Positions 2,484-41,598 are shown, counted from the first letter of the stretch. The stretch is DNA of 64,000 nt from Minisyncoccota bacterium (GCA_041666225.1 JBAYHJ010000005.1:2320-66319), one strand, 5' to 3'. Notes: generated by a model not told the origin, from the sequence alone. Program-made: numbers and translations.

Positions 2484-3506
2484 ATGGATACAAAATTACC
2501 AACATTAGAATTTATTTTAAGAAATTTTAAAAATTTTAACTCTCGTGCTACTCGCGATGCAACAATCGCATATTGGAAGCACGTAGAAAAGGGCGGCAAA
2601 ATGTTTTGGGCTGTTGGTGGAGCAATGTCTTCTGCTCAGCTTGGAATTACACTTGCTCCTGCAATTCGTAAGGGTCTTATCTCTGGTATGTCAGTAACAG
2701 GTGCAAATTTAGAAGAATCACTTTTCCGACTTGTTGCTCACAACAGTTATAAAGATTTTCCGGATTATCGATATTTTACAAAAGAAGATGACACAAAAAT
2801 CTTAGAAGACCGCATGCGTCGAGTGACAGACACAAGTATTCCAGAGGATGAAGCATTCCGTGCAGTTGAACAGCAAATCGTTCCTACTTGGAAGAAAGCA
2901 ACAGAAGAAGGAACAAGAAAATTTTGGCATGAATATTTTTACGATTTAATAAAGAGTGTTGAAGAAGAAAAACACGAAGGAAAGAAAGAAGAATGTTGGT
3001 TGCTTGCAGCCGCTGAGAATAATATTCCAATCGTTGTTCCAGGGCACGAAGATTCAACCTTTGGAAATATTTTTGCTTCATATGTAAAAAATAATGAATG
3101 TAGTCCAAACATTGTTAAATCTGGTATTGAATATATGGCCGCTTTTTATGATCAATATCAAACTCTTTCAGAGGGTGAAGGAATTGGATTTTTTCAAATT
3201 GGAGGAGGTATTTCAGGAGATTTTCCTATTTGTGTAGTTCCATCACTTAAATACGATATGCAAATTGACAATGTAAAACCTTGGGCATATTTTTGTCAGA
3301 TTTCTGATTCTACAACTTCATATGGTTCATACTCAGGTGCTACTCCAAACGAAAAAATTACTTGGGATAAACTTACCAAAGATACTCCAATGTTTGTTAT
3401 TGAGTCAGACGCAACTATTGTCGTACCACTAATACTTGAAGCTCTTATGGAGTGTCTTGAAAGTCCAATAGAGGCAAATAGATTAATAGAAAAATATACA
3501 GCTTAA
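2484..3506 (+). CDS. Deoxyhypusine synthase-like protein (bacterial DHS/homospermidine-synthase-like family)
   Basis: GGAMSSAQLG, SVTGANLEESL and VVPGHEDSTFGNIF match DHS family NAD-binding motifs; embedded in polyamine cluster. Confidence 0.6.
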   Translation: MDTKLPTLEFILRNFKNFNSRATRDATIAYWKHVEKGGKMFWAVGGAMSSAQLGITLAPAIRKGLISGMSVTGANLEESLFRLVAHNSYKDFPDYRYFTKEDDTKILEDRMRRVTDTSIPEDEAFRAVEQQIVPTWKKATEEGTRKFWHEYFYDLIKSVEEEKHEGKKEECWLLAAAENNIPIVVPGHEDSTFGNIFASYVKNNECSPNIVKSGIEYMAAFYDQYQTLSEGEGIGFFQIGGGISGDFPICVVPSLKYDMQIDNVKPWAYFCQISDSTTSYGSYSGATPNEKITWDKLTKDTPMFVIESDATIVVPLILEALMECLESPIEANRLIEKYTA

Positions 3507-38184: not shown

Positions 38185-39234
38185 AAGCAGAACACTAACT
38201 AGTTAATAATGACTCCCTTAATAATACCACACTTTGTGGTCTTTTTTGTTTTTGTAACTCTCTATCAAATTCTTCTTGTGGTGTTTTAAAATTAAGACAG
38301 GTCATGTATTTGTTTCTAAGTTTCTCTTCAACCATTTTAAAATGAGATAGTGGAAAGGAAGACAAATCAGATTTTTTCTTAACATATCTTCGTATAGCTT
38401 TGTTTCTGTTCTCGACTGTACCTTTTTCATTAGGTGATTGAGGATGACAGAAATACACTGTTGCATCCAATAATTCAGAAAGTTCTTGATGTTTTTGAAA
38501 CGAAATATCATTATCTAACGTCAAACTTTTAACTGGAATATCAAATAGTAATTCTTCTATCAATCTATTCACATTTCTATTACTCCTATCCTCTAAATAT
38601 ACAAGGAATGGATATCTTGTTTTCCTCTCTACAAGCACAAGAAGTGATCCTTTACCATCTTTCCCGCTTTCAATGAAATCACCCTCGAAATGACCAAATT
38701 CTATTCGTTTTTCAATATGTTTTGGTCTTTTATCAATGAATACTCTTCCATCTATTCCTACACTTGTTCCTCTTTTCTTTCCAGTCTTTTTCTTAACAGC
38801 ATTACTATACAAACACTTCTCTATCTGTCTTCCATGAGGACTTTCTACGAACTTGTATATTGCCTTAGAACTGGCATATTCAATTCCTTTTTCTACATAT
38901 TTTAATCTTCCAGATATACCTTCAGGAGACTGATGATCTTTTATATTATCTACAACAAACTTTTGTAATTCTTTATTCATTGCTACCTTCAAGCAATCTC
39001 TCTTAGATTTCTCTCTTTTTACATCTGCCTTATGCTGTGCTTTTTTTGCATTGTAGATTCCACTTACACTATTGTTCTTAACCTCATTTGATATATTTGA
39101 AACACTTCTTTTTAATACTCTTGCAATCTCTCGCAAGCTTTTTCTTTGTCTCAAAAATCTTTCAATTTTCTTTCTATCGCCGAAACACAAATGCATATAT
39201 ATTCTCATAATTCTATTTTACAAGTGTTCTGCTT
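38185..39234 (-). mobile_element. IS30-family insertion sequence (about 1050 bp) with 12-bp perfect terminal inverted repeats
   Basis: IRs aagcagaacact (38185..38196) and agtgttctgctt (39223..39234) bracket a single 337-aa transposase ORF. Confidence 0.75.
38195..39208 (-). CDS. IS30-family DDE transposase, intact
   Basis: N-terminal HTH (SLREIARVLKRSVSNISNEV), DDE domain (LTLDNDISF ... HPQSPNEKGTVENRNKAIRRY). Confidence 0.85.
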   Translation of the reverse strand: MRIYMHLCFGDRKKIERFLRQRKSLREIARVLKRSVSNISNEVKNNSVSGIYNAKKAQHKADVKREKSKRDCLKVAMNKELQKFVVDNIKDHQSPEGISGRLKYVEKGIEYASSKAIYKFVESPHGRQIEKCLYSNAVKKKTGKKRGTSVGIDGRVFIDKRPKHIEKRIEFGHFEGDFIESGKDGKGSLLVLVERKTRYPFLVYLEDRSNRNVNRLIEELLFDIPVKSLTLDNDISFQKHQELSELLDATVYFCHPQSPNEKGTVENRNKAIRRYVKKKSDLSSFPLSHFKMVEEKLRNKYMTCLNFKTPQEEFDRELQKQKRPQSVVLLRESLLTS

Positions 39235-39271
39235 CAAAGGTAAATCTTCATTTTTCGACATGTGTTTTAGT

Positions 39272-39318
39272 GGTTATCAGAGCAGACAATACTTTTGTCT
39301 CTTGTGGTAACCATTAAA
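39272..39318. repeat. Segment B' of the second copy of the A-B unit
   Basis: ggttatcagagcagacaatacttttgtctcttgtggtaaccattaaa, imperfect palindrome like B at 37527..37573. Confidence 0.5.
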
Positions 39319-39416
39319 CAATATAATTATGAGAGCTCTAATAAGCAAAGCAAGAAAAGTAATTTTTCTTCATGCAGTTAAAGCTGCAGGAATTGAAGAA
39401 AGGAAAAACTATGAAG

Positions 39417-39447
39417 GAGAATTGGGGTCAGAGAATTGGGGTCAGCC
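39417..39447. repeat. Left inverted doublet of the 11-mer attggggtcag flanking the Y1 transposase gene
   Basis: gagaattggggtcagagaattggggtcagcc; reverse complement of the right flank. Confidence 0.6.
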
Positions 39448-39470
39448 ACTATTAATGATATAATATTACT

Positions 39471-40145
39471 ATGCCAAGAATAAAAAGAATTAATGTTGGA
39501 GGATATATATATCATGTTTTAAATAGAGCAAACGCTCGTGTACAAATTTTTGATAACAAAGAAGATTATAAACTTTTTGAAAATATTTTAGAAGAAGCTA
39601 TTAAGAAATTTAATGTAAAGATTTTAGCTTATTGTATTATGCCAAACCACTGGCATATGGTTTTGTATCCAGAAAATGAAGGTGATCTATCTATGTTTAT
39701 GGGATGGCTTACAAACACCCACACAAGAAGATGGCATACAAAAAAGGGAACTGTGGGACAAGGCCATCTCTATCAAGGAAGATATAAATCATTTATTTGT
39801 CAGGATGATAATCATTTTCTCACTTTAGTTAAATATGTTGAACAAAATGCAATGAAGGCTAATCTAGTTAAAAAAGCAGAAGATTGGGAATGGTCTAGTG
39901 TCTGGAGAAGAGAAAATGGAACAATTAAACAGAAAGAAATTTTATCAGCATGGCCAGTATTTAGACCAAAAGATTATTTATCTTGGTTAAATACAATTTT
40001 ACCACAAGAAAAAGGAGAAATTATTGAAAAATCTATCATTAAGAGTATCCCTTTTGGAGAAGATGTTTGGGTTAATAATACTGTAAAGAAATTTGGATTA
40101 GAACAAACACTAAGGAAAGTTGGAAGACCTAAAAATGGTGGCTGA
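39471..40145 (+). CDS. Y1/HUH tyrosine transposase (IS200-like / REP-associated tyrosine transposase-like)
   Basis: HUH motif in IMPNHWHMVLY, catalytic Tyr region KYVEQNAMKANL, 224 aa. Confidence 0.75.
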   Translation: MPRIKRINVGGYIYHVLNRANARVQIFDNKEDYKLFENILEEAIKKFNVKILAYCIMPNHWHMVLYPENEGDLSMFMGWLTNTHTRRWHTKKGTVGQGHLYQGRYKSFICQDDNHFLTLVKYVEQNAMKANLVKKAEDWEWSSVWRRENGTIKQKEILSAWPVFRPKDYLSWLNTILPQEKGEIIEKSIIKSIPFGEDVWVNNTVKKFGLEQTLRKVGRPKNGG

Positions 40146-40184
40146 CCCCAATATCCTGACCCCAATATCCAATATCCAATATCT
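40140..40184. repeat. Right inverted doublet ctgaccccaat x2 plus aatatcc repeats
   Basis: ggctgaccccaatatcctgaccccaatatccaatatccaatatc; ggctgaccccaat is the exact reverse complement of 39435..39447. Confidence 0.6.
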
Positions 40185-40280
40185 CGAACCTATTGACTTT
40201 TTTGTGTAGTTTACGATATAATATAAACATAAATACGAAAAGGGATCCGAACGGTTAACTACCTAAGGAGCCCTTTTCTT

Positions 40281-40793
40281 TTATATGGAGATCTTATTTT
40301 TTATGTCTTTATTATCGAGATAATCAAACAACTCTCCTCCTAGACTTTTGTATAGAGATGAAGCAAATTTTTTATTTGGAAATAGTATTTTTTTAAGTTT
40401 GTTTTCTTCTATTAAAAAATCAACTAATAATTTATAATCACCATCTCCCGAAACTAAAACTATTTTATTAAAATCATTTTTTCTATATATTTTTTTCATT
40501 ATCTCAAAAACAATATCAGTATCAACATTACCTTTCTTTTTGCCGAGCATCGCTGGGTTGTGCTGTTTAAAGACTAAAATAAACCCGGCTTTTTGAATTT
40601 CTGAATATATTTCTTGATTTACTTCCTGTACATAACCTAGAAAATAATAAGCTTCTTTTACTCTATATTTTTTCTCTAAATAAACCTTGAATTTAAATAA
40701 ATTTACTTTCCATGAATTATCACTTAAGGTTGTTCCTAAATGTAAATTTTGACCATCTATAAAAGCTATATTATTTGTTTCAATATTTTCCAC
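40281..40793 (-). CDS. NYN-domain (LabA-like) predicted ribonuclease
   Basis: IDGQNLH ... GNVDTD ... LVSGDGDY acidic motifs of the NYN/PIN-like fold. Confidence 0.65.
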   Translation of the reverse strand: MENIETNNIAFIDGQNLHLGTTLSDNSWKVNLFKFKVYLEKKYRVKEAYYFLGYVQEVNQEIYSEIQKAGFILVFKQHNPAMLGKKKGNVDTDIVFEIMKKIYRKNDFNKIVLVSGDGDYKLLVDFLIEENKLKKILFPNKKFASSLYKSLGGELFDYLDNKDIKNKISI

Positions 40794-40932
40794 ATTTTTA
40801 TTATATCACATCATTTTAATTATTTATTATTTCCATCCGAACATCATCCCAAGTTTGGGACAAAATTAAGTGCTGTGAAAATAGGGTTATTTCTACTTGC
40901 AAATTTGGCTTTTTGGTGTTATTATTTCACCC

Positions 40933-41598
40933 ATGAATACATTAACCGCAATAAAGCGAAGTAAGGCAGATAAGCTTGCATCCGTACGAAGTAACGGTAT
41001 GGTACCAGCTGTTGTCTATGGCGCTCGTGTGGAAAACACTATGATTTCCGTGCCGAGTGTAGACTTCGTAAAAATATTAAAAATCGCAGGTGAATCAAGT
41101 ACAATAATTCTTGAATTAAAAGGCGATGAGACAAAAAAAGAAGCTGTTCAAAAGATAGATGTTCTTATTCACGATATGCAAGTCGACCCAATAAAAGGAT
41201 TTCCAATTCACGTTGACTTCCTTGCTATTGATATGAATAAGCCAGTTGAAGTAACTATTCCAGTAGAATTTATTGGAGTTGCTCCTGCTGAGAAAAATAG
41301 TCTTGGAGTATTAGTAAAAGTTATGCACGAAATTGAAATTGAAGCTCTTCCAAAAGATCTTCCTCATAATGTAACAATAGATGTATCTATACTTGAAGTT
41401 TTAGATGCTCAAATTCACATTAAAGATATCAAACTACCAAAAGGAGTAAAAATGATAACAGATGGAGAAGAAGTTATTGCTCTTATTTCTGCTATTAAAG
41501 AAGAAGTTGTTGAAACCGCTCCTGTAGATCTTTCTGCTATTGAAGTAGAAAAGAAAGGAAAGAAAGATGAAGTAGTGGATGAAGAAAAAGCTGCTTAA
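40933..41598 (+). CDS. rplY: 50S ribosomal protein L25 (Ctc form); start at ATG 40933, the ORF track extends to 40897
   Basis: LTAIKRSKADKLASVRSNGMVPAVVYG N-terminal L25 motif plus Ctc C-terminal domain and acidic tail. Confidence 0.8.
   Translation: MNTLTAIKRSKADKLASVRSNGMVPAVVYGARVENTMISVPSVDFVKILKIAGESSTIILELKGDETKKEAVQKIDVLIHDMQVDPIKGFPIHVDFLAIDMNKPVEVTIPVEFIGVAPAEKNSLGVLVKVMHEIEIEALPKDLPHNVTIDVSILEVLDAQIHIKDIKLPKGVKMITDGEEVIALISAIKEEVVETAPVDLSAIEVEKKGKKDEVVDEEKAA

Follow-up and report, generated by a model that had tools for sequence, protein, structure and literature searches.

A probable TIRtron of Patescibacteria, with terminal inverted repeats on either side of a RAYT-related HUH/Y1 transposase gene

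Organization of the locus

The window (the whole 64-kb stretch of Minisyncoccota DNA that was analysed) contains an ORF of 224 residues at 39471-40145 that matches the Pfam family Y1_Tnp (3.6e-20), in agreement with the earlier note, which had placed an HUH/Y1 transposase gene at these positions. Short repeats bracket the gene and make up with it an element of about 718 bp (39435-40152) and a few further bases at the termini; with the partial copies of the ends it covers 39417-40183. The features are as follows.

39417-39434, plus strand: left terminus, outer partial tandem copy (GAGAATTGGGGTCA unit; 11-mer at 39421-39431), without the inner GCCAC
39435-39453, plus strand: left terminal inverted repeat, inner full copy ATTGGGGTCAGCCACTATT, containing GGGGTCAG
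39456-39464, plus strand: extended -10-like box TGATATAAT, part of the block CCAC(Y)ATT(W)AT(R)ATA that is conserved at the left end
39471-40145, plus strand: HUH/Y1 transposase gene, probably of TIRYT type, 224 aa
40134-40152, plus strand: right terminal inverted repeat, inner full copy AATGGTGGCTGACCCCAAT, encoding N-G-G and the TGA stop codon (40143-40145)
40156-40169, plus strand: right terminus, outer partial tandem copy CTGACCCCAATATC
40162-40183, plus strand: decaying run of the heptamer CCAATAT (3.1 copies), still shorter copies of the extreme terminus, with similar arrays in relatives

The 11-mer ATTGGGGTCAG is present twice on the plus strand to the left of the gene (39421-39431 and 39435-39445) and its reverse complement twice to the right (40142-40152 and 40156-40166), so that the inverted doublets reported earlier are present as described. 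These four are the only matches in the window at up to one mismatch (0.61 are expected from shuffled sequence, and none of 100 shuffles reached four), and the motif was not found outside the element in the 64 kb even when three mismatches were allowed. Tandem Repeats Finder (TRF) reports a perfect 14-nt unit repeated 2.1 times on each side (GAGAATTGGGGTCA at 39417-39445 on the left and CTGACCCCAATATC at 40142-40170 on the right) and, further out on the right, the heptamer CCAATAT repeated 3.1 times at 40162-40183, which is the tandem run of aatatcc noted previously. The longest perfectly inverted stretch is GTGGCTGACCCCAAT (39435-39449 on the minus strand and 40138-40152 on the plus strand); the perfect inversion that had been claimed is therefore real, but it is 15 nt long rather than 13. 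The whole inverted repeat spans 33 nt with 88% complementarity (39421-39453 and 40134-40166) and leaves 680 nt between the arms. Its core is GGGGTCAGCCAC on the left and GTGGCTGACCCC on the right, and it includes GGGGTCAG at 39438-39445, with the complement at 40142-40149, which fits GGGGWSAS exactly. On the right, the arm extends over the stop codon of the transposase gene.

The identity of these arms was assessed by folding. Single arms gave a dG of about -2 kcal/mol with z between -1 and +1, which is no significant hairpin, and no GT[AG]G-tagged palindrome was detected at the arms. Because single arms form no significant hairpin, we treat them as terminal inverted repeats (TIRs) and not as REPs. 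The REP identity of the repeats was thereby ruled out; the locus had earlier been read as a minimal REP-RAYT unit, and this part of that reading fails, as the arms are also not dispersed in the window. A search of 38500-41000 against Rfam at E<=1 gave no match.

The A/T-rich block at the left end keeps a constant spacing to the ATG across homologous loci. TTGGGG (39436-39441), within the left arm, lies 17 nt upstream of the -10-like hexamer, and together with TGATATAAT it forms a plausible candidate promoter. The combination TTGGGG-17-TATAAT was not called in a scan with the sigma-70 consensus, and its -35 element matches at three of six positions, so the promoter stays a sequence-level proposal backed by conservation.

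The element lies between an IS30-family transposase gene on the left (38195-39208, minus strand) and an NYN-domain gene on the right (40281-40793, minus strand). The IS30-family gene is intact (196 bits with the NCBIfam model transpos_IS30; HTH_38 and rve domains), and its start codon (39208) and the left end of the element (39417) are about 210 nt apart, making this a small cluster of mobile elements. A near-consensus sigma-70-like site lies on the plus strand just beyond the right end of the element (TTGACT-18-TATAAT, 11 of 12 positions, 40193-40222), and an imperfect 31-nt inverted repeat (40218-40248 and 40267-40297) separates the element from the convergent NYN gene. The left doublet had also been assigned to a 44-aa ORF. 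It does overlap such an ORF, at 39329-39463 rather than 39328-39462; however, we regard the ORF as spurious: it has no Pfam match, and the homologous loci, whose left flanks are unrelated, do not share its sequence.

The transposase

The protein is an intact HUH/Y1 enzyme that is nearer to TnpA_REP than to IS200 TnpA in both sequence and fold, which upholds its earlier description as RAYT-like. With the NCBIfam model REP_Tyr_transpos (NF047646) it scores 76.5 bits against a cut-off of 80, a near miss that does not pass, whereas the IS200/IS605 TnpA model (NF033573) gives 22 bits against a cut-off of 55. In a sequence search of the PDB the sole significant relative of solved structure was Escherichia coli TnpA_REP (4ER8). 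A full-length AlphaFold2 model built with 32 homologues (mean pLDDT of 81.6, pTM of 0.82) returned the same entry as the best Foldseek match (E of 1.3e-8, TM of 0.71 on the target), followed by the transposases of ISDra2, IS608 and IS200 at about 1e-4.

The key motifs are NHWH, YQ, YVEQNA and WEWSS. HWH (residues 60-62), Tyr122 (in YVEQNA) and W139-x-W-S-S (WEWSS, 139-143) are invariant in the 32 homologues, and on this basis the gene looks intact; the Y motif invariably ends in NA and not in NP. Residues ~130-214 form a helical C-terminal extension of ~90 aa, for which modelling reached high confidence only with the full-length protein. No HTH or Bac_DnaA_C match was obtained for residues 126-224 in a Pfam search at E<=10, and a profile search of the PDB with the C-terminal region (97 aa) found no match; a model of this region by itself had a pLDDT of 60 and was judged too poor for a structure search.

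Gene and ends in related genomes

Homologous loci were fetched by protein identity and thus without bias to any DNA motif. The loci obtained in this way, with proteins 66-85% identical to that of the window (L001-L005 and L228-L248), have no neighbours in common with the window, and all of them carry the same two ends. The left end reads GGGGTCAGCCAC(Y)ATT..ATG, in its fuller form (A)ATTGGGGTCAGCCAC(Y)ATT(W)AT(R)ATA....ATG, and the right end reads AATGGTGGCTGACCC(C), in its fuller form AATGGTGGCTGA|CCCC(A)AT. These ends are found at 79-85% protein identity (L001-L005) and again at 69-71%, in a complete Nomurabacteria genome, a Falkowbacteria genome, an Omnitrophota MAG and contigs from Hainich groundwater. 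The trait conserved across relatives is a single TIR of 16-19 bp containing GGGGTCAG. The earlier note had counted against its own reading an 11-mer found nowhere else together with a symmetry missing from homologous loci; the 11-mer is indeed absent elsewhere in the 64 kb, but the flanking symmetry is present at every homologous locus examined.

In most lineages the right arm encodes the final residues (N-G-G) and the stop codon. In the lineage of protein P0065 the stop codon lies upstream of the TIR and the right arm is still kept; because it persists beyond the stop, the arm is conserved as DNA and not as coding sequence.

The P0065 protein is found in identical form with at least five different left flanks and the P0060 protein with four. 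Identical proteins in several sequence contexts suggest recent mobility of the whole unit of gene and TIRs. In one complete genome of 1.09 Mb the element is single-copy, as counted for the exact protein encoded there. Empty sites were sought by flank-to-flank BLAST among all fetched loci and by look-up of the neighbouring NYN protein, and none was found; comparison of L208 with L189 reveals a single junction, as the contig stops within the element. Since the fetched loci yielded no empty site, excision product or target-site signature, transposition is deduced from the distribution only.

The Falkowbacteria loci with P0060 (L243-L248) present a further arrangement, in which the identical gene with its four left flanks is followed, past a degenerate right arm (GGCTGACCCATTT), by a common sequence that includes a 48-aa ORF. 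This lineage may have either a longer mobile unit or a decayed right end combined with one-ended movement. Two of these loci, L245 and L246, carry the element with a common left flank, and in L245 an RVT_1 reverse-transcriptase gene lies ~475 nt upstream.

Partial duplication of the termini

The number of end copies per side varies from one in L001 through two in the window to as many as five in L003 and L004, and the ends are multiplied in ten of the 15 distinct full-length loci. The extra copies are partial: the outermost bases are always kept, and the copies reach 7, 9, 14 or 26 to 55 nt into the element. The result is a nested array that decays outwards; examples are CCAATATC-CAATATC-CAATATC in the window and the long arrays of CATTTAC type in L233-L240. 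Contigs that share an insertion site differ in their arrays (L146 and L209; L234 and L240), which shows that these are generated in situ with a fast turnover. In the window, the 11-mer doublets are thus tandem duplications of part of each terminus, specific to the lineage and anchored at the outer boundary; they are not a conserved trait and do not define a REP-doublet architecture.

Long, hypervariable arrays were seen in the P0065 loci from Hainich groundwater (L233-L242). They consist of degenerate units of 7-8 nt, of the kind GATAAT.. to the left and CATTTAC.. to the right, reach 60-120 nt past both TIRs and differ between L234 and L240, which have a common outer flank.

Non-autonomous derivatives and copy number

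A scan of metagenomes with the 19-mer AATRGTGGCTGACCCCAAT returned 102 stretches, comprising full-length elements, a family of ~208 bp, TIR pairs, units with other cargo and many solo ends. The full-length elements encode proteins with 62-87% identity to that of the window. Many of the matches lie at contig ends, as is expected of repeats, which break assemblies; short metagenome contigs could also hold mis-joins within repeats.

In the ~208-bp family, which is MITE-like, the left end and ~25 codons are joined to ~25 codons and the right end. One deletion junction is common to all members, which occupy at least 12 different flanks in hosts that include named Paceibacterota and Peribacteria MAGs. 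No consistent target-site duplication was apparent in the MITE flanks inspected, only three or four semi-conserved terminal bases. Members are found at L016 1681-1891, L017 1592-1812 and L019 187-395, and in L145, L146, L154, L209 and others; two copies share a 2.5-kb Paceibacterota contig, and one lies in a MAG labelled Bacteroidetes that is possibly mis-binned.

The TIR pairs are smaller still (46-124 nt). Four of them (46-74 nt) were folded and all gave stable hairpins, with energies of -17 to -27 kcal/mol and z of -7 to -12. One tiny element (L190 3034-3130) has two left arms separated by a 22-nt spacer from two right arms, folds into a 21-bp hairpin and begins 7 nt past a tRNA-Arg(CCG) gene (2953-3027). 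In L214 (992-1187) the TIRs bound a 196-bp unit with an interior that is unrelated to the transposase gene and is itself a long G+C-rich palindrome; TIRs can therefore bracket foreign cargo. Among the mini-elements in L151, L161, L164 and L169 there are some with the same right flank and left flanks that differ (L151 against L169), and pairs of mini-elements 1.5 kb apart recur in several samples. These arrangements suggest either that copies have recombined or that assemblies were joined through the repeat.

Contigs of 0.28-1.03 Mb carry one exact copy of the 19-mer each, and many host genomes may therefore hold a single, possibly inactive or domesticated, copy. A scan of 596 Gb of genome contigs was made with the 15-mer GTGGCTGACCCCAAT, which is too short a pattern for a collection of this size; the matches listed were mostly chance matches in unrelated phyla, and those that were relevant among them were L016, L017, L019 and L100.

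Probable membership of the TIRtron class

Di Nocera et al. (2013; PMC3733652) described RAYT-like genes that have long TIRs on their flanks in place of REPs, and named them TIRtrons, encoding TIRYTs. Many, or the majority, of these TIRs carry GGGGWSAS, some overlap the ends of the gene, and they form moderately abundant families with copies that are single, dimeric or grouped (PMC3733652). In the classification of Quentin et al. (2018; PMC6006769) the TIRYTs are subclass 2.1 of TnpA_Y1, the second largest subclass of that survey (PMC6006769, Table 1), and correspond to RAYT Group 1 of Bertels. Proteins of subclass 2.1 have a median length of 238 aa, the motifs NHVH/NH[YF]H, W[EQ]/FQ and YIELNP/Y[IV]HLNP, an SS tail motif and a C-terminal HTH-like domain with similarity to Bac_DnaA_C, HTH_23 or HTH_28, and are not associated with REPs (PMC6006769). 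Bertels et al. (2017; PMC5581495) counted Group 1 among the most IS-like of the RAYT groups. The TIRYT literature found (PMC3733652, PMC6006769) describes no function, mechanism, IS-like behaviour or nested terminal arrays.

As an independent test, distant homologues were fetched from proteobacterial plasmids. A protein encoded on a Pseudomonas aeruginosa plasmid is 28% identical to that of the window over its full length (E of 5e-32) and carries the exact subclass 2.1 motifs NHVH, WE, YIELNP and WSS. Its gene is bounded by a 38-nt TIR (95%) that includes GGGGACAG. The stop codon is covered by the right arm, and on the left there are two tandem copies of the arm and one partial copy. A homologue on a Legionella plasmid has the same layout, with a 26-nt TIR containing GGGTCAG over the stop codon, and its protein shows weak matches to Bac_DnaA_C and HTH models.

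The architecture is thus common across phyla, and the element of the window accordingly belongs with the TIRtrons. We consider it probable that the locus is a TIRtron, that is, a RAYT-related HUH/Y1 gene of TIRYT type (subclass 2.1-like) bounded by TIRs; membership is read from the TIR motif, the layout and pairwise homology, and the protein deviates from the class in NHWH, in Y---NA and in having no HTH match.

Mobile element or domesticated gene

The gene could instead be immobile and domesticated, with repeats that serve as operator- or iteron-like sites for autoregulation or another host function and a likeness to transposon ends that is historical. The left repeats do cover a -35-like position, which precedes the conserved TGnTATAAT-like box by 17 nt, the gene is single-copy both in the window and, for the exact protein encoded there, in the complete 1.09-Mb genome, and RAYT groups have been argued to be largely domesticated (Bertels et al., 2017; PMC5581495). 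We nevertheless find this account unlikely. The unit is present in unrelated neighbourhoods of related bacteria and, as identical copies, in several contexts; ends-only deletion derivatives have multiplied to at least 12 sites; and an operator role is not obvious for the right arm at the 3' end.

A strict REPtron, in which a domesticated single-copy RAYT lies between inverted REP doublets (a minimal REPIN) and disperses REPs but not itself, is very unlikely, since the gene moves with its repeats into new contexts, at least five of them with identical copies. The 64 kb is devoid of dispersed copies, the GT[AG]G-tagged hairpin is absent and the single arms are neither palindromic nor folding. 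It would agree with such an arrangement that the gene has inverted repeats on both sides, that large contigs carry few copies of it and that related genomes contain small hairpin-forming TIR pairs, which are formally REPIN-like. The protein, too, is nearer to TnpA_REP than to IS200 TnpA, but it scores under the curated REP_Tyr_transpos cut-off (76.5 against 80 bits), and the motif fits the TIRYT consensus instead.

An ordinary IS of the IS200/IS605 family would carry subterminal hairpins and insert by peel-and-paste transposition at a target of four or five nucleotides. Such an IS would account for the IS200-like size (about 0.7 kb), the Y1_Tnp domain and the absence of an obvious target-site duplication, but can be dismissed almost entirely given the 22 bits against a cut-off of 55 with the IS200 model, the motif Y---N(A) in place of Y---Q (PMC6006769, Table 1), ends that are true inverted repeats without hairpins of their own and the C-terminal extension of about 90 aa.

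We therefore favour the reading of the locus as a TIRtron, and the comparative sequence data suggest that its Patescibacteria clade is IS-like, active and selfish rather than domesticated. More tentatively, and with somewhat less than even confidence, we propose that the TIRYT elements of Patescibacteria are active autonomous ISs with TIRs that spawn MITEs and hairpin mini-elements and in which nested arrays mark the nick sites.

Proposed mechanism

By analogy with the chemistry of TnpA_REP and IS200/IS605 TnpA, the enzyme would nick single-stranded DNA through a 5'-phosphotyrosine intermediate. The nicks would fall at or near the outer boundary of the TIRs, a few bases past CCCCAAT, on opposite strands, where the arrangement of the TIRs would place equivalent sites. 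The two arms may be presented to the enzyme paired together; in the mini-elements they make up one hairpin, which is perhaps the recognised form.

The outer boundary is proposed as the nick site because the partial copies are all anchored outwards, which is best explained in this way. Synthesis or repair would repeatedly run to the end and re-anneal a few bases inside it, leaving nested copies; these would be by-products of repeated nicking followed by repair or template re-annealing at the boundary. Protein bound at the left arm could in addition repress its own promoter. Both the position of cleavage and the way in which the nested copies arose are put forward here as hypotheses.

Implications

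The TIRtron class is already known and is poorly understood; this member comes from a phylum, Patescibacteria, outside those sampled in PMC3733652 and PMC6006769. The clade offers unusually clean comparative evidence, in the form of a near-invariant TIR, joint movement of gene and ends, MITEs and polymorphic end copies, and this evidence points to where the enzyme probably acts. If the elements are active ISs as proposed, they would represent a type of Y1/HUH transposon that relies on terminal inverted repeats rather than on subterminal hairpins, and would provide a tractable system for studying the mechanism of TIRYTs. TnpA_Y1 subclasses other than 1.1 have been stated to be without typical IS features (PMC6006769); activity of this kind would contradict the view that this holds for all non-IS200 subclasses. 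For annotation, such elements explain short repeats bearing GGGGTCAGCCAC and contig breaks in CPR metagenome assemblies.

Comparison with known systems

With the IS200/IS605 family (IS200, IS608 and ISDra2) the element shares HUH/Y1 chemistry, a very small size and the lack of an evident target duplication. Members of that family have no TIRs, however, and use subterminal hairpins on one strand, a Y---Q motif and a TnpA of about 130-150 aa without the C-terminal extension. The ~208-bp derivatives resemble the MITEs of classical DDE ISs, in that both TIRs and short subterminal segments are retained at many sites; the presumed mobiliser differs in being an HUH tyrosine nuclease, and no target-site duplication was seen.

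The REPtron of E. coli TnpA_REP (4ER8) provides the best match for the catalytic core, and there too the gene is bracketed by inverted copies and accompanied by small non-autonomous derivatives that form hairpins. In a REPtron each REP is palindromic by itself, GTAG-tagged and one of tens to hundreds of dispersed copies, and the RAYT gene is immobile, whereas the arms described here are non-palindromic TIRs of low copy number that move with the gene.

The closest likeness is to the TIRtrons and their TIRYTs: a RAYT-like Y1 gene between terminal inverted repeats, GGGGWSAS within the TIR (GGGGTCAG here), a TIR over the 3' end of the gene, TIR copies that are single, dimeric or grouped, and a protein of about 225-240 aa that has an SS tail motif as well as a C-terminal extension. 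The window protein departs from them in its HuH motif (NHWH), in a Y motif that ends in NA rather than NP and in having no detectable Pfam similarity to Bac_DnaA_C or HTH. The host phylum, Patescibacteria, was sampled in neither PMC3733652 nor PMC6006769, and the elements found in it differ from described TIRtrons in having IS-like relatives, with identical copies in several contexts and MITEs that keep both ends of the gene, and nested terminal arrays.
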